DNA from: a virus
Lineage: Duplodnaviria > Heunggongvirae > Uroviricota > Caudoviricetes
Virus record (IMG/VR): IMGVR_UViG_2802429250_000004
Strand: one strand, 5' to 3'
Length of the DNA: 41,302 nucleotides
Both the position numbers and the translations under genes were made by a program. Under the pieces are notes generated by a model. That model made no database searches. It saw nothing but the letters and a program-made list of their open reading frames with translations, and was not told the origin of the DNA. Position 1 is the first letter of the stretch. Every line of letters starts with the position of its first letter. Positions 6,290-35,812 of the stretch are shown here, piece by piece.

Positions 6290-6387
6290 TTTCTGTAGGC
6301 TTCGACGGCCTCACGAAACATCTTTTCGTCGCCAATAAAAGCGGCGATAGTGAATTTAGTCTGGATAGCCATAAGTGTTTTATCCAT
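6274..6387 (-). CDS. kil: Kil-like small protein (putative host division inhibitor)
   Basis: 37 aa (MDKTLMAIQTKFTIAAFIGDEKMFREAVEAYRKWRSK), ATG at 6385-6387 with GGAG RBS; sits immediately downstream of cIII as lambda kil does; resemblance to lambda Kil is from memory. Confidence 0.45.
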   Translation of the reverse strand: MDKTLMAIQTKFTIAAFIGDEKMFREAVEAYRKWRSK

Positions 6388-6520
6388 TTTTGGGGACTCC
6401 TGGCTGATTAAGTATGTCGATAAGGCGTTTCCATCCGTCACGTAATTTACGGGTGATTCGTTCAAGTAAAGATTCGGAAGGGCAGCCAGCAACAGGCCAC
6501 CCTGCAATGGCATATTGCAT
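6380..6520 (-). CDS. cIII: CIII (FtsH inhibitor protecting CII)
   Basis: 46 aa MQYAIAGWPVAGCPSESLLERITRKLRDGWKRLIDILNQPGVPKNG, matching lambda CIII as I recall it (truncated a few residues at the C-terminus); AAGGAG RBS. Confidence 0.7.
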   Translation of the reverse strand: MQYAIAGWPVAGCPSESLLERITRKLRDGWKRLIDILNQPGVPKNG

Positions 6521-6606
6521 GGTGTGCTCCTTATTTATACATAACGAAAACGCCTCGAGTGAAGCGTTATTGGTATGCGGTAAAGCCGCCAACAGGCGGC
6601 TATTTG

Positions 6607-6840
6607 CTATTGATTCTTTTCAAGAACATCAATGATGTCGTCCGGGTTGTCTCCGTTGTCTTCACAAAATGCTTCGAATTCAGCCCATTTCGCGCTGATA
6701 AAATCAATTACTCTCATTAATTCGTATTCCATATTTTTCTCCAGACCAAAAGAATGCCGCTCATATAGAGCGGCAAGACTATCAAGGAATGATTTCCAAT
6801 AATCAGAACAAGTCGGCTCCTGTTTGGTTACGAGCGACAT
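6607..6840 (-). CDS. Hypothetical acidic protein
   Basis: 77 aa, acidic C-terminus (…FCEDNGDNPDDIIDVLEKNQ); ATG at 6838-6840. Confidence 0.45.
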   Translation of the reverse strand: MSLVTKQEPTCSDYWKSFLDSLAALYERHSFGLEKNMEYELMRVIDFISAKWAEFEAFCEDNGDNPDDIIDVLEKNQ

Positions 6841-6888
6841 TGCTCCGTGTATTCACTCGTTGGAATGAATACACAGTGCTTATTCGTA

Positions 6889-7359
6889 CTAATAAAATAC
6901 CCAATTTTCTGTTTCTTGGTTGTGTCCAAAGTTATATTCAATATCTGGTGTTGATGTATCAATATTCTTCATCCCATCAACAAGAGTTGATACAACAGCT
7001 AAATCTTGTTTGATTCTCATTAAATGGTATTTCTTCCGGCGCAATAAACTCTCAATGGCAAGTTTCTTCGTTGGGAATGCAAAAGATCTTTCTGCATTTT
7101 TTGCTACTTTCTTAATTGCATATCTATTTCTCCTTTGTTTCCATTCCTGTAACCACTGATTTGGTGCTGGTTTAAAATTAACAATCCAATGCGCAGGAAC
7201 CAACCATGCATAATGCTCTGTCTGATGAAAAGCTATATATTGAAGTGCGAATATTTTTATCCCATCTTCTTCAACTGTCGCCTGGAATCTCCAGAAAACA
7301 GGCATTCCATCATGTTCAGTTTCTGATTCAGGAAAAGGTACGCTCCATGATTTTGTCAT
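6889..7359 (-). CDS. Hypothetical protein (AT-rich cargo)
   Basis: 156 aa; ATG at 7357-7359 with GAGGTG RBS; markedly AT-rich compared with neighbouring genes. Confidence 0.5.
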   Translation of the reverse strand: MTKSWSVPFPESETEHDGMPVFWRFQATVEEDGIKIFALQYIAFHQTEHYAWLVPAHWIVNFKPAPNQWLQEWKQRRNRYAIKKVAKNAERSFAFPTKKLAIESLLRRKKYHLMRIKQDLAVVSTLVDGMKNIDTSTPDIEYNFGHNQETENWVFY

Positions 7360-7437
7360 ATCTCACCTCAAATAATTCAGTGCAGTATTTATTCTGTTAT
7401 TTATGCCAAAAATAAAGGCCGACTATGCGGCCTGAAA

Positions 7438-7887
7438 TTACTTAACCAATGATGCTGCATATTCGATAAGGTAAAGCTTTGGGGCTAGCCAAATTTTTAA
7501 CCAAGTCATATTGGTTACTACACCAATAATAAAAATCCCCCACAGAGTCAAAACTCCAACCAATGGCACGATAAGAAGATTAATATCACCTTTGCTATCC
7601 CAAACCATTGTCGGCCTGTATTTGTGATTTCCTTTCTCCCATGAATATCCTTCATCACCGATTTTACCTGTCTCAACTCTTTGGCACTGCTTCTTCATAA
7701 ACCAGAAAACTAGTGGGATTGTTAGAATGGCCATTAATGTTTTAATCAGACTGTCAACCATATTCCATAGCAGCAACTGATGAACAACATCAGGAATCTG
7801 TGCCTGGCTAAATGAAACAGCAGCATCTATTCCATTGCTGGCTTTTTGCAGTAGTTCTACGAGAATCTTGTTTGCTTGTTCTTCCAT
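7438..7887 (-). CDS. Membrane protein, possible superinfection-exclusion factor
   Basis: 149 aa with two hydrophobic segments (…LIKTLMAILTIPLVFWFM… and …INLLIVPLVGVLTLWGIFIIGVV…); ATG at 7885-7887 with AAGGTG RBS; AT-rich. Confidence 0.5.
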   Translation of the reverse strand: MEEQANKILVELLQKASNGIDAAVSFSQAQIPDVVHQLLLWNMVDSLIKTLMAILTIPLVFWFMKKQCQRVETGKIGDEGYSWEKGNHKYRPTMVWDSKGDINLLIVPLVGVLTLWGIFIIGVVTNMTWLKIWLAPKLYLIEYAASLVK

Positions 7888-8032
7888 ATATCACCTTAAA
7901 TAGTGGATTGCGGTAGTAAAGATTGTGCCTGTCTTTTAACCACATCAGGCTCGGTGGTTCTCGTGTACCCCTACAGCGAGAAATCGGATAAACTCTATTC
8001 ACCCCTACAGAGAGAATGATGGAGATTCACCG

Positions 8033-8572
8033 ATGAGTAACTGGTGGCAGGAACTGTTACGCTTCTTCCTGCGTGGTCTTACGCTACAACAGTTAATTCA
8101 TATGCTTATTATTTTAATTGCCTTGATAATAATTACCCCAGCATCAATTAAAGAGTGGGTAGATATAAGGAACCCCGAAATACTTCCAGATCACTGGATG
8201 TATTACGCAATGCTTTTGTGTATCAGTTATGTTCTGAACAGGGTGATGGAGTTTATATTTCTGGCATCTTCAGACAGATATAAAAAATATCTCAGTAAGA
8301 GAGATGAGGCTAAAGTAATTGTGGAGACTGAGCGCCTGTTCAATTCTCTGAGTATTCAGGAAAAAGAGGTTTTAGCATTTGCTGTTATGGCAAATAACAA
8401 AATCGTACTTAAGCACGGCGATCCGGTCGCTTTATCTCTTATGAGAAAAGGCCTTCTCCATCGCTCAGGTGTGACTTACAGCGCGTCAGGTAAAGAGAAA
8501 TTTGTTATACCTGACGTCTGGTTCTATGAGTGTTATATGCGCTTTGCTGGTAAAGCTGATGAGCTAATTTAG
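8033..8572 (+). CDS. Membrane protein, SieB-like superinfection-exclusion candidate
   Basis: 179 aa on the opposite strand to the surrounding operon; two N-terminal transmembrane helices followed by a soluble domain, as described for the SieB family; GGAG RBS 8 nt upstream of ATG 8033; family assignment not verified. Confidence 0.45.
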   Translation: MSNWWQELLRFFLRGLTLQQLIHMLIILIALIIITPASIKEWVDIRNPEILPDHWMYYAMLLCISYVLNRVMEFIFLASSDRYKKYLSKRDEAKVIVETERLFNSLSIQEKEVLAFAVMANNKIVLKHGDPVALSLMRKGLLHRSGVTYSASGKEKFVIPDVWFYECYMRFAGKADELI

Positions 8573-8578
8573 TTCCTC

Positions 8579-8620
8579 GACGGCGGGGGATCGTCACCTC
8601 GCCGTCAGTTGTTTTGATTT
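8579..8620 (+). terminator. Possible intrinsic terminator after the SieB-like gene
   Basis: 7-bp stem GACGGCG/CGCCGTC with a 14-nt loop followed by a T-rich tract; overlaps the 3' end of N on the other strand. Confidence 0.3.
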
Positions 8621-8800
8621 CCGGTAGCCTGCCGCGTAAATGGCTACGTTTGGCAGGCAGCACGAACCACATTCAACCTTCTTCCTATTCGCTCCTGCTA
8701 GCGAAACCACCATTGAAACACGGTCAATATTTTTACGTTTTGCTGTCGCCTCTTTGTGCTTACGAGCGCGTTCGAGTTTGCGAATCTCTCTTGCTTTCAC
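8594..8800 (-). CDS. N: N-type transcription antiterminator (P22 gp24-like)
   Basis: 68 aa from a GTG start; N-terminal arginine-rich motif KAREIRKLERARKHKEATAKRK; C-terminus …VSLAGANRKKVECGSCCLPNVAIYAAGYRKSKQLTAR resembles the P22 gene 24 product as recalled; nutL lies just upstream. Confidence 0.7.
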   Translation of the reverse strand: MKAREIRKLERARKHKEATAKRKNIDRVSMVVSLAGANRKKVECGSCCLPNVAIYAAGYRKSKQLTAR

Positions 8801-8955
8801 TGGATACCTCCGATGATTGACTTTGGTGATTTGATGTCAGGTGTCGATCTCCTGATTGCGGCTACCCATCCTGCCCCAAAGGCAGGTGCTCACCGCTAAG
8901 CGTTAGTGCATCGACCTGCGCATTCATCAAATCCCAAAGCCAACCTCTCTTTGGT

Positions 8956-8994
8956 GGGGACGAATCATCCCCATTCCATCAATGTTAAAGAGCC
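8956..8994 (-). promoter_or_regulatory. nutL (boxA + boxB)
   Basis: Minus-strand boxA GGCTCTTTAACA (8983-8994) followed by boxB hairpin GGGGATGATTCGTCCCC (8956-8972); the boxB is identical to the one at nutR. Confidence 0.65.
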
Positions 8995-9039
8995 TGCCAA
9001 TCTGTTCCGTTTGGCTTCCTGCGTCCTGCTGATGGCTTA

Positions 9040-9120
9040 AAGATAACTTAGGTTATAGGCGTGGTCAATAACTTAGTTTATATTTTGTGGTAAATAAGTT
9101 ATAAGTAATGGATAACAAAG
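9040..9120 (-). promoter_or_regulatory. PL promoter / OL operators
   Basis: Minus-strand -35 TTGACC (9063-9068), 17-bp spacer, -10 TATCTT (9040-9045); overlapping palindromes ATAACTTAGGTTAT and ATAACTTAGTTTAT share the ATAAC-N4-GTTAT motif with the OR region. Confidence 0.45.
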
Positions 9121-9254
9121 GTATTTTATTTTTGTAAATGTTGAGGATGAAGGTGATGGGCAGGGATCAGAATTGCACTGTTTAGCAAGTTGTATCTATT
9201 AGTTTTCCAATAAATACAAATGGTTATGTGTTGTTGGGAAGGGGGATCGAGAGG

Positions 9255-9290
9255 CAAAGAAAACCCGACGCTAAGGCCGGGGTGTGAGGG
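9255..9290 (-). terminator. Possible terminator ending the cI operon
   Basis: Minus-strand hairpin (CCCGGC…GUCGGG with one G-U pair) followed by UUUUCUUUG, just downstream of the 9312 stop and before PL. Confidence 0.35.
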
Positions 9291-9311
9291 ATTAATTACA
9301 GAGCAAAGAGA

Positions 9312-10316
9312 TCACGCATTAGGTTGCTGTTCATCTGGTTGTTGAATTGATACGGCTCCAGTTCTTTTTTGATCTCGTTCAGGTGCTGTTCCGCTTTTCT
9401 TGCCAGATTGCGACTTTCTTGGATCTGGCTTTCCAACATTTTGTTGAGAATTTCCATCTCCGGTTGCAGATTCTTCGGCATTAGTATTGTCCTCTTTATC
9501 TTGTGTAGTAAGAGGGAAATCCATCACCCTTGGTTTTCCAAACGTTGGGATTTCACCACTATGAATCTTATCACAGAAAAAATTATCGAGTATTTCTGTT
9601 ATACCTTTAGGACATTCAACACACTTGAAAAGTTCCTTGGCTTCTTTTCTGTCGATAACAAATCCATGTGAAGGATACGAAGCGATGAGTTTGCTTAACG
9701 CCCCTTCTTTTAGACTACTTGGCTTGTCTGCTAACCGTTGACCATAAGTGATAGCAATGCTCATCGCACGCTGATGCTCACCAAGTTTTATTGGATCTAT
9801 CTGAGCAGCCATGGGGGCTATCAATGCCTCTGTAAGTCTGGTTGCGATGTCAGCAGATATTTTAGTGCTTATCTGGTTTTCGTATTTTATCTGAACAAGG
9901 TATGAGTTAAACGCTGAAATAGAGCGCTCCTTCAGTGCATCGAGAGCTGTCATAATGGCTAAACCAGAGCTCATCTCACCTATTTCATCGTTTTTTTTCA
10001 GTTGGATATCTAATGGCCCGAGCTCACCCATGTCACCAATAACAAGTTTATTCGCAGCTATGGCTATTAGTGTACCAGCACTTTTGCACGGCCCAACAAC
10101 TAAAAGTGTTACCGTTTCATAATAGTGCTGGAGAGCCCTACCTATACGATAACCAGCATTAGGATCACCGCCATAAGTAGCAACACAGAAGATAACATTC
10201 TCTTTTAATCCATGTTGTGACTTACGCTTCTTGATTTTATTGGTTAGATCAAGATAACCATCACGATGAATATCGCCTATATACACATAAACATCATTAT
10301 TTTCAATAGTATTCAT
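9312..10316 (-). CDS. ClpP/S49-fold serine peptidase-like protein (SDH/SppA-like) in the rexAB-equivalent slot
   Basis: 334 aa; core …VIFCVATYGGDPNAGYRIGRALQHYYETVTLLVVGPCKSAGTLIAIAANKLVIGDMGELGPLD… aligns by eye to the ClpP motif block (…INSPGG…AG…GQAASMGA…) with a Ser in the nucleophile position; low-complexity charged C-terminal tail; AGGGAG RBS; co-directional and immediately downstream of cI; AT-rich. Confidence 0.6.
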   Translation of the reverse strand: MNTIENNDVYVYIGDIHRDGYLDLTNKIKKRKSQHGLKENVIFCVATYGGDPNAGYRIGRALQHYYETVTLLVVGPCKSAGTLIAIAANKLVIGDMGELGPLDIQLKKNDEIGEMSSGLAIMTALDALKERSISAFNSYLVQIKYENQISTKISADIATRLTEALIAPMAAQIDPIKLGEHQRAMSIAITYGQRLADKPSSLKEGALSKLIASYPSHGFVIDRKEAKELFKCVECPKGITEILDNFFCDKIHSGEIPTFGKPRVMDFPLTTQDKEDNTNAEESATGDGNSQQNVGKPDPRKSQSGKKSGTAPERDQKRTGAVSIQQPDEQQPNA

Positions 10317-10459
10317 TCGTTAAACTCCCTGTTGTGGTTACGATGAATGTATTCATGTTGAGGATAAGACATAGTGGTTTGTCATCATCGCTAATCTGGC
10401 GCAATTGACTTTTCATAAATCACAATTGGAATCACCCAAACGTCTCTTCAGGCCACTGG

Positions 10460-11167
10460 CTACCAGCTATGTGATGACCAGAATACTCTGCCAATAATCC
10501 TTACTGTTTCATGAAACTCATCTCTATCCATTACTTCATCAGGGTACTCTTCGCGATTTATTGATCTGATTATCACGGATGTAGGTGTGGCTATTAATGT
10601 CTTTACTCTTAGTAAATCAGATTGACAAATAGCGTAGGTTTTACCATCTCTGATGGTGGTGTCTTGCGTGTTGACTCCAACAACATCACCATCGTGAAGG
10701 GTTGGCTCCATGCTTTGGCCTATCACCCTAACCAGCTTGGCAGAGCTTTCAGATACCCCCATCTTTTTCAGATAGTACTTTCTGAAAACCAAAGAGAACT
10801 CAGATGATTCCTCTAACTCACAGCTACCACTCCCGGCGGAAAGAGAAACATTAAGAAGAGGCAATGCGACAAACTCGTCATCGTTTCTTTTTATGTCTTC
10901 CCATACCACCGCTTTTAACGATGACTCACGCACATTCGATGGCTCTTCATGTGCACCATCCCTCATTTCACCAATACCTGAGCTAAGCCATTCAGGGCGT
11001 ACTTTTAAAGCATTGGCTAATTCAACCATCTTGCGAGATCCGTTTGTTTTACCGGATGACATCTTCTGTATGGCTGGCTGAGATATTCCAACCATGTCAG
11101 CAAGCTGTGATTGCGACACACCTGCTGAGCTCATGGCTGCATTTAGTCTTTCTGCGAATGTTTTCAT
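10460..11167 (-). CDS. cI: CI-type prophage repressor (HTH-XRE plus S24 LexA-like peptidase domain)
   Basis: N-terminal HTH (…QSQLADMVGISQPAIQKM…), Ala-Gly cleavage site (LSAGSGS) and C-terminal S24 motif GQSMEPTLHDGDVV; ATG at 11165-11167 has no RBS, consistent with a leaderless PRM transcript as in lambda. Confidence 0.85.
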   Translation of the reverse strand: MKTFAERLNAAMSSAGVSQSQLADMVGISQPAIQKMSSGKTNGSRKMVELANALKVRPEWLSSGIGEMRDGAHEEPSNVRESSLKAVVWEDIKRNDDEFVALPLLNVSLSAGSGSCELEESSEFSLVFRKYYLKKMGVSESSAKLVRVIGQSMEPTLHDGDVVGVNTQDTTIRDGKTYAICQSDLLRVKTLIATPTSVIIRSINREEYPDEVMDRDEFHETVRIIGRVFWSSHSW

Positions 11168-11278
11168 ACCCACAAATCTATAACTACGGTTATCCAAAGT
11201 AAAATAATAAAGGTTATTGCTATTTTTTATAACTTGAGTTATCTTTGGTTATAAGTAATGACCACAAGAGGTATGCTC
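11168..11278. promoter_or_regulatory. OR operators with divergent PRM/PR
   Basis: Intergenic region between divergent cI and cro containing palindromes ATAACTACGGTTAT and ATAACTTGAGTTAT (same ATAAC-N4-GTTAT motif as OL); exact promoter hexamers not resolved. Confidence 0.5.
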
Positions 11279-11503
11279 ATGAATTTAGTAATTCAACGAG
11301 CCTTGAAAATTGTCGGTAGCCAAAAGCGCCTTGCCGACAAGTGTGGTGTAACGCAGCCAGCAGTACACAAATGGCTGAAAGGCGGGTTGGTCTCTCCAGA
11401 GAAAGTTACCGCCATCGTTAACGCCACTGGAGGGCAGATCAAGGCTTACGAAATTCGCCCCGATTTGCCACACCTGTTTCCAAAACCGAATCAGGCAGCA
11501 TAA
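11279..11503 (+). CDS. cro: Cro-like repressor
   Basis: 74 aa starting MNLVIQRAL… with AGAGGT RBS; HTH-like …QKRLADKCGVTQPAVHKWL…; divergent from cI. Confidence 0.65.
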   Translation: MNLVIQRALKIVGSQKRLADKCGVTQPAVHKWLKGGLVSPEKVTAIVNATGGQIKAYEIRPDLPHLFPKPNQAA

Positions 11504-11510
11504 GTAACAC

Positions 11511-11548
11511 CGCTCTTTAAACAATCAGGTCGGGGATGATTCGTCCCC
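11511..11548 (+). promoter_or_regulatory. nutR (boxA + boxB)
   Basis: boxA CGCTCTTTAAACA (11511-11523) and boxB hairpin GGGGATGATTCGTCCCC (11532-11548) between cro and cII. Confidence 0.7.
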
Positions 11549-11600
11549 ACAAAAAACGCATCAACAGATGCGTAATATTCACTATTGGAAATCATAAGAA

Positions 11601-11897
11601 ATGGAACAAACAAGTTACAGCAAACTATCACAGCGTGACGTTGATCGCGCAGAAACAGATTTACTCATCAACCTGTCAACGCTTACACAGCGCGGTCTGG
11701 CAAAGATGATTGGCTGTCATGAATCAAAGATAAGCAGAACGGACTGGAGATTTATTGCTTCGGTCTTGTGTGCTTTCGGAATGGCATCAGACATCAGTCC
11801 GATTAGTAGGGCTTTTAAGTATGCGCTTGATGGAATCACCAATAAAAAACGCCCGGCGGCAACCGAGCGTTCTGATCAAATACAAATGGAATTTTAA
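11601..11897 (+). CDS. cII: CII transcriptional activator
   Basis: 98 aa; C-terminus …TNKKRPAATERSDQIQMEF closely matches lambda CII (…TNKKRPAATERSEQIQMEF) as recalled; position after cro/nutR. Confidence 0.85.
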   Translation: MEQTSYSKLSQRDVDRAETDLLINLSTLTQRGLAKMIGCHESKISRTDWRFIASVLCAFGMASDISPISRAFKYALDGITNKKRPAATERSDQIQMEF

Positions 11898-11919
11898 TAA
11901 CATCCAACGAGGTAATTAT

Positions 11920-12063
11920 ATGCGAAAAACGCAGGAAAATAAACGCGTTAATCACCGAAAAGATGTGCTACGTGACCAGTTTTATCAGGGGGTTAATCCA
12001 GCAATAGCTGTGCCACTGAGAGAAATACTTAACAGGTACAAAACTTCGGAGAAGTCAAAATGA
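11920..12063 (+). CDS. Small hypothetical protein between cII and O
   Basis: 47 aa (MRKTQENKRVNHRKD…), GAGGTAA RBS; stop overlaps the O-like start (ATGA). Confidence 0.3.
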   Translation: MRKTQENKRVNHRKDVLRDQFYQGVNPAIAVPLREILNRYKTSEKSK

Positions 12064-12815
12064 GCATGAATCTTATGGCTAAGGCCATGAATATAAAGGT
12101 TGGCAACCCACTGAGAAAACTGGTTCTGATTAAACTTGCCGATAACGCCAATGATAATGGCGAATGCTGGCCTTCATATCAACATGTCGCTGACCAGTGT
12201 GAGGTGAGCAGATCGACAGTAAAAAGTCACATTAGGGCACTGGAAGAGATGGGGCTTTTGAAAAGGGAATTCAGAAGAAAAGGAGAGCTTAACCAGTCAA
12301 ACGTTTTTTATCTGACGCTGGATAATGCACAACAAATCCAACCAGAATCAGGTGGGGCAGGAGCTGCCCTAGGGGGTGGGGCAGGAGCTGCCCCCAGAAC
12401 CTATCACTCTTTTGAACCAGTCAATGAACCTAAAAACATTATGTTCGAACATGTCCGAACAGAGTGTGAAAAAACTCCTGACCGTCACGAAGAAACCGAC
12501 AAGGCATTCGAGGAAATATTCTGGTGTGCAGGCATGCGGAAAGCCGGGAAGAAAAACGCAGCTTCAGCATTCAGAACACAGTTCAGGGAATGGCGTAAAA
12601 CTACCAGGGGGACGGCAAGCGAGTTTGCCACGATGCTGGCAGAAGACATTGCGTGCAGGCTCGGTAAGCAGTTCGGGTTCGACAGGTTGTTACCATCGAG
12701 CTACCTGAACGGTCAACGCTGGAACGACGAGAAGCCAGAAACTATTCAACCACAATCCAAACCATCATCCGCAATCACCGTATCGAAAACTGGCTACGTG
12801 TTTTTCGACAGGTGA
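12060..12815 (+). CDS. Replication initiator (O-like, N-terminal HTH)
   Basis: 251 aa; N-terminal DNA-binding region (…LVLIKLADNANDNGECWPSYQHVADQCEVSRSTVKSHIRALEEMGLL…); two 16-bp direct repeats lie inside the gene; position upstream of the primase-helicase. Confidence 0.6.
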   Translation: MSMNLMAKAMNIKVGNPLRKLVLIKLADNANDNGECWPSYQHVADQCEVSRSTVKSHIRALEEMGLLKREFRRKGELNQSNVFYLTLDNAQQIQPESGGAGAALGGGAGAAPRTYHSFEPVNEPKNIMFEHVRTECEKTPDRHEETDKAFEEIFWCAGMRKAGKKNAASAFRTQFREWRKTTRGTASEFATMLAEDIACRLGKQFGFDRLLPSSYLNGQRWNDEKPETIQPQSKPSSAITVSKTGYVFFDR

Positions 12816-29239: not shown

Positions 29240-30658
29240 ATGCCGATTCAGCAACTTCCGCTTATGAAAGGTGTCGGCAAAGACTTCCGAAACGCCGACT
29301 ATATCGACTATCTGCCAGTGAATATGTTGGCTACACCAAAAGAAATCCTGAACAGCAGCGGATATCTTCGCTCATTCCCGGGCATTGCCAAACGTTCTGA
29401 TGTGAACGGTGTATCTCGCGGCGTCGAGTACAACATGGCGCAGAATGCTGTTTATCGCGTGTGTGGTGGCAAACTGTATAAGGGCGAAAGTGAGGTCGGT
29501 GATGTTGCCGGAAGTGGTCGCGTATCAATGGCGCATGGTCGAACATCACAGGCGGTAGGCGTTAATGGTCAACTGGTCGAGTATCGCTATGATGGCACGG
29601 TTAAAACCGTCTCAAACTGGCCTACAGACAGCGGATTCACGCAGTATGAGTTAGGCTCAGTCCGCGACATTACGCGCTTACGTGGGCGTTATGCGTGGTC
29701 AAAAGACGGAACTGATTCATGGTTCATCACTGACCTTGAAGATGAATCACATCCTGACCGATACAGCGCACAATATCGTGCCGAGTCTCAGCCGGACGGC
29801 ATCATCGGTATCGGGACATGGCGAGACTTCATCGTCTGCTTTGGTTCATCGACTATTGAATATTTCTCCCTTACTGGCGCAACCACCGTTGGTGCCGCTT
29901 TGTATGTCGCACAACCATCGCTGATGGTGCAGAAAGGTATTGCCGGAACCTACTGCAAAACGCCATTCGCTGATTCTTATGCGTTCATCAGCAATCCGGC
30001 AACAGGTGCGCCGTCTGTGTACATCATCGGTTCCGGTCAGGTGTCACCAATCGCCAGCGCGAGCATTGAGAAAATCCTCCGCTCCTACACTGCTGATGAA
30101 CTGGCTGATGGTGTGATGGAATCGCTGCGATTTGATGCTCATGAGTTGCTGATTATCCACCTTCCGCGCCATGTTCTCGTGTACGACGCATCTTCAAGCG
30201 CCAATGGTCCGCAATGGTGTGTGTTGAAAACTGGCTTGTATGACGATGTGTACCGCGCTATCGACTTCATTTACGAAGGCAATCAGATAACGTGCGGCGA
30301 TAAGCTGGAATCCGTGACCGGGAAATTGCAGTTCGATATCAGCAGCCAGTACGACAAGCAGCAGGAACACCTGCTGTTTACTCCGTTGTTCAAAGCGGAT
30401 AACGCCAGAGTTTTCGACCTTGAAGTTGAATCGTCAACTGGAGTTGCGCAGTATGCTGACCGCCTTTTTCTCTCTGCAACCACTGACGGCATCAATTACG
30501 GGCGTGAGCAGATGATTGAGCAGAATGAACCGTTCGTTTACGACAAACGCGTTTTGTGGAAGCGGGTCGGACGCATCAGGAAAAATGTCGGCTTCAAATT
30601 GCGCGTTATCACTAAGTCACCTGTCACTCTCTCAGGCTGCCAGATAAGGATTGAGTAA
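29240..30658 (+). CDS. gp10: Tail accessory protein (P22 gp10-like)
   Basis: 472 aa (same length as P22 gp10), following gp4. Confidence 0.85.
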
Positions 30659-31359
30659 TGGTTGATTCATCACTGAATGATCCTGTCGTGGTTCAGGCTA
30701 CGCGCCTTGATGCTTCAATTTTGCCACGCAATATATTCAGCCAGTCTTACCTGCTGTATGTCATAAATCAGGGAGCTGATGTCGGTGCAATTGCTGGGAA
30801 GGCAAATCAGGCTGGTCAGGGCGCTTACGATGCCCAGGTAAAAAACGATGAACAGGACGTAGAACTGGCTGATCACGACGCAAGAATCACCGCAAACACA
30901 AAAGCGATAAATCTCCTTGAGGTCAGGTTAACAACCGCCGAAGGGAAGATAGTCGTACTGCGTAGCGATGTTGATTACTTGCTGGATGAGGTTATCGATA
31001 TTCAGGCGCATCTGGTCACTGTTGACCAAAGACTGGATGGCGTAGAAAGCGATGTATCTGACATTAAGAGTGATTACGTATCGAAAACCGTAACAGAATC
31101 GCAGTCTCTTGCGTCACCGCTGGATGTAAAAACATCATATTCAGTTGATGGAATTCAGGTTGTTGGAGCAAGAAATACCGGATGGACTGCAGCCACAGGT
31201 ACACCTCTTCTTGGCTCATTCAACGCTAACCAGTCATACGCGGTCGGCACTACGTACACACAATCCGAAGTCGCGGCTCTCGCTACAGGTTTGCAGCAGG
31301 CGCGGCAGCGTATTCTGGCGCTTGAAACGGCACTTAGATTACATGGGCTGATTGACTGA
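30658..31359 (+). CDS. gp26: Tail needle (P22 gp26-like)
   Basis: 233 aa; N-terminus …[31 protein letters not shown]… and C-terminus …[12 protein letters not shown] match P22 gp26 as recalled. Confidence 0.85.
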
Positions 31360-33902: not shown

Positions 33903-35812
33903 TGGCTTATAGTCGTGAACAGTTGATGACAGCATTAAGGAACGCTGATGCGGCAGGCGATACAGAAGGAGCGCGTCGCATTGCTCAGATTCTGTCCTCC
34001 AGTAATCAACCAACTCAAAACCAAAAGCAGCCTGTAGAACAGCAAGATGGATTTATGTCTGACCTCGGCGAAGCAGTAAAAGAAACTGGTCGCGGACTGG
34101 TGCAGGCTGGTGTAAATGTGGCAAATATACCAGCATCAGTTGCCGATGCTGTAACAAGCGCGGCGGCATGGGCTGGCGGTAAACTCGGTATTGGCGATGG
34201 AACATATCAACCAGCGCCACGAGTAACAACTCAGGGATTAGAGCAGGCGTTTGGACTTCAGCAAGGTGCTCTGACTCCACAAACGACAGAAGGTAGGGTG
34301 TTTGCGGAGGCATTGCCTTACCTGGCTACTGTTGGCGTTGGCGGCGCTTCAACTCAGGCGCCAACACTTGCTGGTCGAATTACTCAAGGCGCAGCCCGTC
34401 TTCTGGCAGAAAACGCAGTCGGATCGCTCGCCGCAAACAGTGAGAAAAATGATGCGGGAAAACTGGCAACAGATATAGGTGTTGGCATGCTAACAGGTGG
34501 TGCTGTTAATACTGTTGCAAAAGGGCTTGAGCGTGGAATAACTGCCTTTAAAGGTGATATTGCACCAGAAGTGGCGAAGAAAATTGCCACATCAGAATCG
34601 ATGGGCGTGACACCAATGACATCTGATGTAATCCCGCCGAAAAATGCTTTCACTCGTGGTCTTACTCAGGATGCTGAGGGTGCTTTGCTGGGAACAGGCT
34701 CAAAGCGAGCTGAGCAGTATGCAAAAAGAAGTCAGCTAGTTAAAAAACAGCTTGAGAAATATGGTGAATATAGCCCATCAGTTGTTGTTGACGATCTGTA
34801 TGGTTCTCTGAAGTCAAGGAAGGATTCGGCCGGAAGCGTTATTGAAGACATTACAGCCAAAATGGGAGACACACCAGTTGACACATCAAAATCTATTAAG
34901 GTTATCGACAACGTACTTACCAGAGCTAATAGGCTTGGGAAAGTGGCAAATAAGGATTTGATTCGCGGGTTATCCGATTTGCGAGAAGAACTTGCTAAAC
35001 CAGATATAGATTTTGGTCTATTGAGAGAGTTGCGGTCAGCCTTGAGGGAAAGTATTCAGGGAGATGCCATGGTTTTTCCTAATAGCGCGAAAGCCGCAAC
35101 TGATGCCGTGGAGAGGGCAATGGGGGCAGATTTGAGGAATAACGCAGCGCGGTATTTGGGGGCTGGAGAGGCCGCCAGATACGTCAAAGCAAACTCTGAC
35201 TACTCCAACGTCTTCAATAAGGTTCTTAATAAAAGGATTGCGAATAATCTCAACAAAGCTAAAAAAGAGTTTACTCCAGAGCTAATAAACAGCGTTGTAT
35301 TCAGCAGAAAACCATCAGATATTAAGAGGATATGGCCAGCTCTTAGTGAAGATGGAAAGAACGCTATGCGTGCTGCTTATATCAGCAAGATTGCAGAAAA
35401 AGCAGGAGACTCGCCAACAAAATTTCTTACCGAGTTAAATAAGTTGAAGTCGCAATCTGACGGTCAGATCTATAACACGATATTCAGTGGGAGACACATG
35501 AAAGAGCTTGATGCTCTTCATGAAGTTCTACAGCAAACAGCAAGGTCGGACGCCGCAAATGTAGTAACACAGACAGGACAATCGCAAGCTAACAGGATTA
35601 GAACGATTGGCGCAACTGCAACCCTTGGTGTATCACTGGGACTTGAGGCTGGTTTCGGTGCAATCATGCGCTTGTATGAGTCCAAAGCAGCAAGGAATGC
35701 TCTCTTACGTCTGGCAAACACTAAAGCTGGAACGCCAGCATATGAAAGAGCGCTGAATAACGCTGCGAATGCCATCAGGCCGCTGCTTGCCACTGAGGCA
35801 ACACAGCAGTAA
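33902..35812 (+). CDS. gp16: Ejection protein (P22 gp16-like)
   Basis: 636 aa in the conserved position; Ala/Gly-rich. Confidence 0.8.
   Translation: MAYSREQLMTALRNADAAGDTEGARRIAQILSSSNQPTQNQKQPVEQQDGFMSDLGEAVKETGRGLVQAGVNVANIPASVADAVTSAAAWAGGKLGIGDGTYQPAPRVTTQGLEQAFGLQQGALTPQTTEGRVFAEALPYLATVGVGGASTQAPTLAGRITQGAARLLAENAVGSLAANSEKNDAGKLATDIGVGMLTGGAVNTVAKGLERGITAFKGDIAPEVAKKIATSESMGVTPMTSDVIPPKNAFTRGLTQDAEGALLGTGSKRAEQYAKRSQLVKKQLEKYGEYSPSVVVDDLYGSLKSRKDSAGSVIEDITAKMGDTPVDTSKSIKVIDNVLTRANRLGKVANKDLIRGLSDLREELAKPDIDFGLLRELRSALRESIQGDAMVFPNSAKAATDAVERAMGADLRNNAARYLGAGEAARYVKANSDYSNVFNKVLNKRIANNLNKAKKEFTPELINSVVFSRKPSDIKRIWPALSEDGKNAMRAAYISKIAEKAGDSPTKFLTELNKLKSQSDGQIYNTIFSGRHMKELDALHEVLQQTARSDAANVVTQTGQSQANRIRTIGATATLGVSLGLEAGFGAIMRLYESKAARNALLRLANTKAGTPAYERALNNAANAIRPLLATEATQQ

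Follow-up and report, generated by a model that had tools for sequence, protein, structure and literature searches.

The AT-rich region between positions 7438 and 8620 of the window, that is, of the whole 41,302-nt stretch of viral DNA analysed here (IMG/VR record IMGVR_UViG_2802429250_000004), very probably represents a canonical lambdoid sieB-esc-sas cassette to which mosaic recombination has attached an accessory gene unrelated to it. The main value of this result is a correction, since the plus-strand orientation of sieB, which the first-pass annotation had presented as a deviation, is the textbook arrangement for both lambda and P22: lambda sieB (34482..35036, +) is opposed to N (35037..35438, -), and P22 sieB (BK000583; 29758..30336, +, with esc at 29830..30336) is likewise opposed to gene 24 (30357..30659, -). 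Because the orientation is the usual one and the promoter Psie, the sas region and the Esc start are kept almost base for base, the locus needs no new explanation. E. coli genomes already contain near-identical alleles that carry the SieB annotation, and the part without an existing explanation is only the 149-aa protein encoded at its left. The features of the locus, in window coordinates, are the following:

7416..7433, minus strand: terminator-like hairpin with T-run (AGGCCGCATAGTCGGCCT TTATTTTTGG), directly 3' of the 149-aa gene, from a consensus scan
7438..7887, minus strand: gene of the 149-aa membrane protein, ATG start, from the ORF list
7911..8037, minus strand: region equivalent to the P22 sas antisense RNA, by end-to-end alignment with P22A-sas reads
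7964..7994, plus strand: sieB promoter Psie, an exact 31/31 match to the annotated P22 promoter
8033..8572, plus strand: gene of the 179-aa membrane protein (sieB), ATG start, from the ORF list
8102..8572, plus strand: predicted esc (SieB inhibitor), read in frame from the internal Met24 of sieB, by alignment
8579..8606, plus strand: terminator-like hairpin with T-run, 10 pairs (8 G-C), 3' of sieB, from a consensus scan
8594..8800, minus strand: N-type antiterminator of 68 aa, tail-to-tail with sieB (Pfam N_peptide, 59.2 bits)
8956..8993, minus strand: putative nutL, with boxA GCTCTTTAACA at 8993->8983 and the boxB hairpin GGGGATGATTCGTCCCC at 8972->8956, read from the sequence
9040..9068, minus strand: PL-like promoter TTGACC-17-TATCTT, from a promoter scan

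Both membrane-protein genes described in the first-pass annotation are thus present in the ORF list on the strands claimed for them, and they diverge from a spacer of 145 bp. The AT-richness that had been attributed to both is borne out by a GC content of 38.9% for the 149-aa gene and 39.6% for the 179-aa gene (40.7% for 7438-8620 as a whole), compared with 47.0% for the window; a GC scan along the window found 4% of all segments of 1183 bp to be equally or more AT-rich. The right end originally set for the region, 8620, lies 48 nt beyond the sieB stop and inside the 3' end of N. The hairpin at 8579..8606 overlaps the final codons of N and has no counterpart in P22 or lambda in the same consensus scan, so that a strong terminator-like hairpin 3' of sieB distinguishes the window from P22.

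Profile and alignment matches identify the 179-aa gene as an ordinary sieB, encoding the superinfection-exclusion protein. Its product scores 72.8 bits against the Pfam SieB family PF14163 (gathering cut-off 26), with residues 23-154 aligned to profile positions 2-127 of 147, and 312 bits against phrog_1301; its identity is 49% to P22 SieB (residues 2-179) and 21% to lambda SieB, and E. coli RefSeq alleles with 98-99% nucleotide identity to the gene carry the name 'super-infection exclusion protein B'. Which of the two proteins, if either, is a true SieB homologue had been left undecided and a profile search of both had been proposed; on the Pfam match and the identity to P22 SieB the answer falls to the 179-aa protein, and the 149-aa protein, with no Pfam match at E <= 1 and an hhalign probability of 0.3%, drops out. 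The layout with two N-terminal helices ascribed to the 179-aa protein is confirmed as well, since Kyte-Doolittle hydropathy (19-residue windows, threshold >1.6) places hydrophobic segments at about residues 11-45 and 59-78 and none past residue 78, followed by a soluble part. The protein is predicted to be an inner-membrane abortive-infection protein with two N-terminal transmembrane helices and, by analogy with its relatives, would abort the lytic growth of superinfecting phages without esc. With 179 aa it is shorter than the P22 protein (192 aa), from which it differs by a C-terminus 13 residues shorter.

The DNA upstream of and around the sieB start strongly resembles the P22 control region. 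The promoter annotated for P22 sieB (BK000583 29690..29720, 31 nt), for which the RNA start is also annotated, recurs without a single change in the window, and its activity here is predicted from this exact match; an alignment with P22, lambda and an ETEC prophage places it within a block that does not vary among them. By equivalence with P22, transcription would start at about position 8001, giving a sieB leader of 32 nt. A consensus promoter scan of the window missed Psie, as it also did in P22, where the promoter has been mapped experimentally. On the opposite strand, the P22A-sas read sequence of 127 nt (PMC13397905, Table 2) aligns end to end with positions 7911-8037, and the RNA equivalent to sas, the function of which has been summarised (PMC12197685; PMC7067206), is complementary to the sieB leader, the Shine-Dalgarno sequence and the start codon. 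The core of this region (7911-8012) is identical at 101/102 positions to P22 and at 97/103 to lambda. Across 7885-8035 the identity to P22 is 93%, compared with only 58% at the nucleotide level for the sieB coding sequence. The likeness to the antisense control of P22 sieB, suggested by the first-pass annotation, is hence apt, as the sas-encoding DNA is nearly unchanged. Overall, the sas/Psie module of about 130 bp is conserved at 93-99%, far above the genes that flank it, SieB having protein identities of 49% (P22) and 21% (lambda). Such conservation fits a sequence that serves both as promoter and as antisense RNA and that acts as a mosaic junction.

An Rfam scan of positions 6500-12500 returned a cIII thermoregulator as its sole match and no family for the sas region, and the predicted fold of the sas-equivalent RNA was no more stable than that of shuffled sequence (z = -0.46). 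Inside sieB, no sigma-70 promoter for sas was found by scan, and none convincing by eye, a result compatible with either a dedicated promoter or processing of the PL transcript. The P22 annotation places the esc start at codon 25 of sieB, and the corresponding methionine, M24 in the window, is an invariant column in the alignment of SieB from the window, P22, lambda and H10407; translation from Met24 may accordingly yield Esc, as judged from this alignment, and reading the window sequence revealed no evident Shine-Dalgarno sequence upstream of it. As Psie, the sas region and the Esc methionine all match P22, the locus is an ordinary sieB-esc-sas cassette.

To the right of sieB, the N-type gene begins with a GTG codon preceded by GGAGG 6 nt upstream; its C-terminus (CLPNVAIYAAGYRKSKQLTAR) recurs in N peptides of E. 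coli and in P22 gp24, and its N-terminal KAREIRKLERARKHK aligns with the arginine-rich motif of the same proteins. The site putatively assigned as nutL is recognised by the resemblance of its boxA to the consensus and by its position between PL and N. The scan which found the PL-like promoter also recovers the annotated PL of P22 as well as lambda PL. Since N, nutL and the PL-like promoter all lie on the minus strand, leftward transcription from PL would be antisense to the 179-aa gene, and the claim of the first-pass annotation that PL transcripts reading through N oppose this gene stands.

From the expression pattern and the SieB/Esc/sas mechanism of P22, a phage with only 49% identity in SieB, we infer the following course of events. 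In the lysogen, rightward transcription of sieB would be driven by the weak promoter that the gene has for itself at 7964-7994, against the repressed PL operon, and would give rise to two products, the two-helix SieB, which would abort lytic growth of heteroimmune phages that superinfect, and Esc, started at the internal Met24, which would inhibit SieB. During the lytic growth of the phage itself, transcription from PL (about 9040-9068) would pass nutL and N and run antisense through sieB, and would thereby produce the RNA of the sas region (7911-8037, minus strand). The sas RNA would then cover the leader, Shine-Dalgarno sequence and AUG of sieB and leave the Esc start uncovered, so that SieB synthesis would stop, Esc synthesis would go on, and the phage would be spared from killing itself. 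The 149-aa gene would be the next gene on this leftward transcript, the first after the sas module, in the slot held by orf28/ral in lambda.

The closest known counterpart, the sieB-esc-sas system of P22, was reportedly described by Ranade and Poteete in 1993; lambda sieB is said to have been identified by promoter homology in a 1993 J Bacteriol paper. The window shares with P22 the Pfam family and the degree of SieB identity given above, the tail-to-tail position relative to the N homologue, the identical 31-nt Psie, the sas core and the internal Esc methionine. It differs in its strongly diverged sieB coding sequence and in its left neighbour, a phrog_3054 gene in the window and ral in P22. 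With lambda sieB (lambdap48) it shares the orientation, the abutment with N and the core of the upstream module, and even the leftward gene opens with the same ribosome-binding site and ATGGAAGAA, so that the ribosome-binding site and first codons of the 149-aa gene belong to the conserved module common to lambda orf28; here the differences are the low SieB identity and the leftward gene past the module, which is orf28/ral in lambda. The arrangement of N, convergent sieB, sas module, phrog_3054 gene and cIII recurs in Salmonella phage SPN9CC and related P22-like phages, and a Salmonella prophage encodes an 89%-identical 149-aa protein in the same N/sieB/sas/phrog_3054 order. In SPN9CC, however, the phrog_3054 homologue has 121 aa and 50% identity, and SieB is of the P22-type allele.

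The 149-aa protein itself is, as far as profile searches indicate, an uncharacterised phage membrane protein of the family phrog_3054 and unrelated to SieB. It matches this profile with 214.2 bits (residues 1-149 on positions 1-137 of 137), and all 103 diverse relatives collected for it match the profile too; its 516 close relatives are, every one, named 'hypothetical', and the family comprises 2,481 representatives when clustered at 50% identity. Scans against Pfam (E <= 1), NCBIfam and PADLOC gave no match, a Pfam scan of the 103 relatives gave scattered chance matches only, a profile search of PDB sequences reached a best E of 1.5, and no informative fold match was found. Hydrophobic segments lie at about residues 43-65 and 100-130, and an AF2 model (pLDDT 80.8) consists of a helix at 2-68, a loop, a helix at 106-125 and helices at 128-148. 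Strongly conserved in the family are the acidic N-terminal helix and a C-terminal helix, 'WLKIWxAPKLYLIEYAASL'. The positive-inside rule, applied to the 103 members (N-terminal net charge -3.3; 3.0 K+R in the 12 residues after the first transmembrane helix), leads to the prediction that both conserved terminal helices face the periplasm and that the loop lies inside.

The two genes are distributed independently of one another. Among 22 species-representative genomes and about 20 further loci, the 149-aa family gene directly follows N in Cronobacter, E. coli, E. albertii and others, and directly follows spanin or lysis genes in Pantoea, E. coli and Citrobacter, its start in Citrobacter overlapping the stop of a spanin-like gene; neither sieB nor sas lies beside it in any of the 22 species-representative loci (0/22). 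Translational coupling of the gene to a spanin or N-like gene, seen in some prophages, points to lytic-phase rather than prophage expression of the family. Members also occur in virulent phi92-like and N4-like phages, the N4-like carriers being vibriophages; across phrog_3054 as a whole, both temperate and virulent phages are represented, with Enterobacteria, Vibrio, Pseudomonas and others as hosts. Conversely, the sieB allele of the window has ral as its left neighbour in E. coli MMC-J-0105. Thus, the 'pair' formed by sieB and a 149-aa 'partner' in the first-pass annotation does not hold: the 149-aa protein shows no similarity to SieB, SieA or Ral, many phages carry its gene without sieB, and, as the gene elsewhere follows N without sieB, follows lysis cassettes and occurs in virulent phages, the pair is best read as a mosaic juxtaposition.

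It might be argued that both membrane proteins form one two-component exclusion system, with the 149-aa protein acting as partner, sensor or antidote of SieB and expressed divergently from the common spacer. The genes are indeed adjacent and divergent across 145 bp, both proteins have two transmembrane segments, and the adjacency of sieB and phrog_3054 genes recurs in phages and prophages already sequenced, Salmonella prophages and phage SPN9CC among them. The spacer, however, is the pre-existing sas/Psie module, which in lambda and P22 is followed by orf28/ral or other genes, and a consensus scan found no promoter-like site for the 149-aa gene within it; moreover, sieB is absent from 22/22 of the genome loci with the 149-aa family, the family turns up behind lysis cassettes and in virulent phages, and elsewhere an identical allele of sieB is accompanied by ral in place of the 149-aa gene. 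The gene distribution therefore largely refutes such a system, which we consider highly improbable. Just as little credence is given to the idea that sieB of the window is a decaying, non-functional remnant. Its product is shorter than that of P22 and only 49% identical to it, and the neighbouring N is also unusually short, but the open reading frame is intact, lies well over the Pfam threshold across nearly the whole PF14163 profile, recurs as the same 179-aa allele (98-99% nucleotide identity) in numerous E. coli genomes, and retains its promoter, sas region and Esc methionine.

Any role of the 149-aa protein can be suggested by analogy. It might be speculated that it excludes superinfecting phages or blocks injection at the inner membrane independently of SieB, similar to P22 SieA, T4 Imm and HK97 gp15, and is made in lytic growth or by read-through in the lysogen. 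P22 SieA (164 aa), too, is small, encoded by a phage and located in the inner membrane, with a size close to that of the 149-aa protein; the conserved terminal helices of the two-helix 149-aa protein are predicted to be periplasmic, its gene is AT-rich like other accessory genes, and the family occupies both classic lambdoid accessory slots, beside N/sieB and after the lysis genes. We nevertheless regard this role as unlikely, as neither SieA nor SieB is related to the protein in sequence, no match was found in PADLOC or to an informative fold, and strictly virulent phages carry members of the family beside genes of nucleotide metabolism; the translational coupling described above, with the lytic-phase expression to which it points, also speaks against it. 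A lysis or envelope accessory function (such as modulating a holin, a spanin or the timing of lysis), with the gene placed in the PL operon by mosaic accident, is favoured by the Rz/spanin (6), holin (7) and endolysin (7) matches among same-strand ORFs lying up to 2.6 kb upstream in the 22 loci, by the overlap with the spanin-like stop in Citrobacter and by the position directly after the lysis cassette in Pantoea. This, too, appears quite unlikely: at least as many close relatives follow N in the early-left operon, the neighbours in phi92 and the N4-like vibriophages are not lysis genes, and the site after the lysis cassette hosts accessory genes generally, being a general insertion hot spot for them. 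Only tentatively might the family be viewed as a new, widespread class of phage inner-membrane effectors acting in the exclusion of secondary infections or in the control of envelope disruption. We favour the juxtaposition of a canonical sieB cassette with an independent mobile accessory gene, the product of which is most likely an inner-membrane protein of the lytic phase. Phage membrane proteins of this large, unstudied family, of which the gene offers one example, would be a reasonable target for a screen by cloning and plating.

Several identities considered for the 149-aa protein were rejected. Family alignments by hhalign and the Pfam scan dismissed it as a SieB homologue; hhalign against P22 SieA, which has no detectable relation to either protein of the window, gave a probability of 0.8% for the 149-aa family; and no Ral family was matched in Pfam or NCBIfam, despite the ral/orf28 slot. 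An N-terminus beginning 'MEE' rather than 'MNE' was considered as a marker of sas-linked copies and is only partly valid, since several MEE copies occur without sas; the leftward gene of SPN9CC begins with MEEQANK. In the prophage of ETEC H10407, a separate ral gene lies between the 149-aa family gene and sieB.

The locus carries a canonical superinfection-exclusion cassette, consisting of sieB, its inhibitor gene esc with an internal start and the antisense RNA sas, in canonical orientation. The finding is real and ordinary; in E. coli, near-identical prophages already have this gene under the annotation SieB. Both membrane-protein genes are located where the first-pass annotation had placed them, in agreement with the ORF list, and their neighbours are consistent with the early-left region of a lambdoid phage:

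6500-6533, minus strand: cIII thermoregulator match (Rfam Lambda_thermo, 40.5 bits; truncated where the searched range ends)
7433..7416, minus strand: terminator-like hairpin past the 149-aa gene (scan)
7438..7887, minus strand: 149-aa gene (ORF list, ATG start)
8033..8572, plus strand: 179-aa gene, sieB (ORF list, ATG start)
8594..8800, minus strand: N-type antiterminator, right of sieB (Pfam N_peptide, 59.2 bits)
8956-8993, minus strand: nutL (boxA/boxB), read from the sequence
9068..9040, minus strand: PL-like promoter (promoter scan)
10460..11197, minus strand: cI, right of the PL-like promoter, with a 334-aa gene and cro (ORF list)

The promoter scan that yielded the PL-like site also picks up the authentic PL promoters of P22 and lambda, and the C-terminus of the N-type antiterminator is shared with P22 gp24. 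To the left of the two genes, the cIII thermoregulator match shows the PL operon carrying on with its usual gene order. An ORF at 6380..6592 (minus strand) contains the lambda-like CIII sequence MQYAIAGWPVAGCPSESLLERITRKLRDGWKRLIDILNQPGVPKNG. Overall, the window represents an E. coli phage of mosaic P22-like/HK620-like composition. Each of the two proteins has two hydrophobic segments of membrane-spanning length (about 43-65 and 100-130 in the 149-aa protein, about 11-45 and 59-78 in the 179-aa protein). The AT-richness ascribed to both genes was confirmed, with a GC content of 38.9% (149-aa gene) and 39.6% (179-aa gene) versus 47.0% for the window; the region of the finding, at 40.7% GC, is among the lowest 4% of same-sized windows.

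Judged by its sequence, the 179-aa protein is SieB. It matches the Pfam SieB model (PF14163) with 72.8 bits at a gathering cut-off of 26 and phrog_1301 with 312 bits, and it is 49% identical to P22 SieB (residues 2-179 aligned) and 21% identical to lambda SieB. Many complete E. coli genomes harbor 98-99% DNA-identical alleles annotated 'super-infection exclusion protein B'. Thus, the proposed SieB-likeness holds, and the SieB-family profile search of both proteins is matched by the 179-aa protein and not by the 149-aa protein.

SieB has been described in reviews to halt macromolecular synthesis in superinfecting P22-like phages midway through their lytic cycle, and sas to switch translation between two sieB-encoded peptides (PMC12197685, PMC7067206). 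In an alignment of the window, P22, lambda and the ETEC H10407 prophage, a block of ~130 bp in the spacer between the two genes (7888-8032) is almost invariant. The 31-nt P22 sieB promoter, Psie, is matched exactly at 7964-7994, which puts the corresponding start of transcription near 8001, and the P22 sas RNA sequence (PMC13397905) aligns to the minus strand from 8037 to 7911. The core at 7911-8012 is identical to P22 at 101 of 102 positions and to lambda at 97 of 103; the sieB coding sequence shares only 58% nucleotide identity with that of P22. With its 5' part, the sas region spans the start codon of sieB and its Shine-Dalgarno sequence, a GGAG located 8 nt ahead of the ATG, and the methionine at which P22 Esc starts (codon 25) falls in an invariant alignment column, as Met24 in the window (nt 8102). 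All elements required by the SieB/Esc/sas scheme are present and, as read from the DNA, intact. The suggested resemblance to the antisense control of P22 sieB is therefore sound, the sas region and Psie being near-unchanged. No unusual RNA structure was detected in the sas region, the fold of which is unremarkable (z = -0.46).

The sas/Psie module also contains a 15-nt direct repeat at 7968-7982 and 8002-8016 (plus strand; CCCCTACAGCGAGAA / CCCCTACAGAGAGAA), one copy overlapping the promoter annotated in P22, in its upstream part, and the other the transcript start. P22 and the ETEC prophage retain both copies; lambda retains the first and only part of the second. In a prophage of E. coli 19AR1724 (locus L041, 3112-3207), where sieB is absent, 96 nt match the sas core with 91.7% identity; this copy precedes a 149-aa gene with 95% identity and is abutted by an 'antitermination N domain protein' gene. 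Thus, the module can persist without sieB, which fits a recombination joint or a remnant.

The first-pass annotation treated the plus-strand position of sieB as an oddity. This is not the case, as lambda and P22 share the geometry:

lambda (NC_001416): sieB 34482..35036 (plus), N 35037..35438 (minus)
P22 (BK000583): sieB 29758..30336 (plus), esc 29830..30336, gene 24 30357..30659 (minus)
window: sieB 8033..8572 (plus), N 8594..8800 (minus)

For P22, BK000583 further lists a promoter of sieB (29690..29720) and an RNA start (29727). In the window the sieB and N stop codons are 21 nt apart, tail-to-tail as in both reference phages; this plus-strand arrangement is defining for sieB and no departure. 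Just past sieB, and overlapping the final codons of convergent N, there is a strong terminator-like hairpin (8579-8606, plus strand; 10 pairs, 8 of them G-C, with a T-run behind); in P22 and lambda, the scan yielded no such hairpin past sieB. The N protein is short, with 68 aa versus 100 aa for P22 gp24 and 90 aa for common E. coli N peptides. It begins at a GTG with GGAGG 6 nt upstream and retains an N-terminus rich in arginine and lysine, KAREIRKLERARKHK, as well as the conserved C-terminus, but most of the middle is missing.

The 149-aa protein is neither SieB nor SieA nor Ral. It matched no Pfam, NCBIfam or PADLOC model, and hhalign gave probabilities of 0.3% against the SieB alignment and 0.8% against P22 SieA. 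It is a full-length member (214 bits) of phrog_3054, a large family of unknown function; its 516 relatives in a 90%-identity collection are all named 'hypothetical', and 2,481 representatives occur at 50% clustering (E <= 0.001). All 103 sampled relatives matched phrog_3054 and none had a convincing Pfam match. The AlphaFold model from a deeper alignment is confident (pLDDT 80.8), with a single long helix (2-68) in which a soluble N-terminal part runs into TM1, a loop modelled poorly (69-105), TM2 (106-125) and two short C-terminal helices (128-148). Conservation across the family resides in the N-terminal 42 and C-terminal 23 residues (mean frequency of the commonest residue 0.61 and 0.76, compared to 0.24 for the loop). 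An acidic N-terminus (net -3.3) contrasts with a cluster of basic residues just past TM1 (3.0 K+R in 12 residues); by the positive-inside rule, this suggests periplasmic termini and a cytoplasmic loop.

Genes of this family occur in several contexts:

Salmonella prophages, phage SPN9CC: N, convergent sieB, sas module, then the family gene (window order)
ETEC H10407 prophage: window order, with ral between sieB and the family gene
Cronobacter, E. coli 19AR1724, E. albertii, others: directly past N or an N-like gene, without sieB
Pantoea, E. coli, Citrobacter: directly past the lysis cassette
virulent phages (phi92 gp220, N4-like vibriophages): beside unrelated early genes

The start of the family gene overlaps the stop of the upstream gene in Cronobacter and that of a spanin-like gene in Citrobacter. 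Neither sieB nor the sas core was found at any of 22 species-representative genome loci, where upstream ORFs gave 6 spanin, 7 holin, 7 endolysin, 4 N-peptide and 5 S24-repressor matches. Conversely, E. coli MMC-J-0105 carries the window sieB allele (98.7% nucleotide identity) with a frameshifted ral on its left. The conserved module ends in the RBS and first codons of the leftward gene, AAGGTGATATATGGAAGAA, shared with lambda orf28, and the junction to the 149-aa gene thus looks like an ordinary lambdoid mosaic joint. The first-pass reading is partly supported: SieB-likeness and antisense control are retained, whereas an unusual strand and a pairing of the two genes are rejected. The 149-aa gene is an unrelated accessory gene beside the cassette.

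The scan found no promoter-like site for the 149-aa gene in the spacer, and we infer that PL drives its expression along with the early-left genes. In other genomes the gene is coupled to lytic genes, and virulent phages carry it too, which argues for a part in lytic growth rather than lysogenic conversion. The reading ranked as most likely, though with low confidence, is that the protein acts at the envelope in the lytic phase, in exclusion of secondary infection or lysis modulation. Directly downstream of the 149-aa gene and hairpin lies a 156-aa gene (6889-7359, minus strand; phrog_1636, function unknown; 35.9% GC), and in E. coli 19AR1724 a 471-nt hypothetical gene of this size is in the equivalent place beside the 149-aa homologue.

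Between PL and cI, in the rexA/rexB slot of lambda, the 334-aa gene (9312-10316, minus strand) is followed by a terminator-like hairpin (9281..9264). It had no PADLOC match and matches phrog_21683 (unknown function) with 580 bits; residues 38-114 show weak, sub-threshold similarity to ClpP-like/SDH-type serine proteases. We regard it as a candidate for an accessory or defence gene expressed from the prophage.
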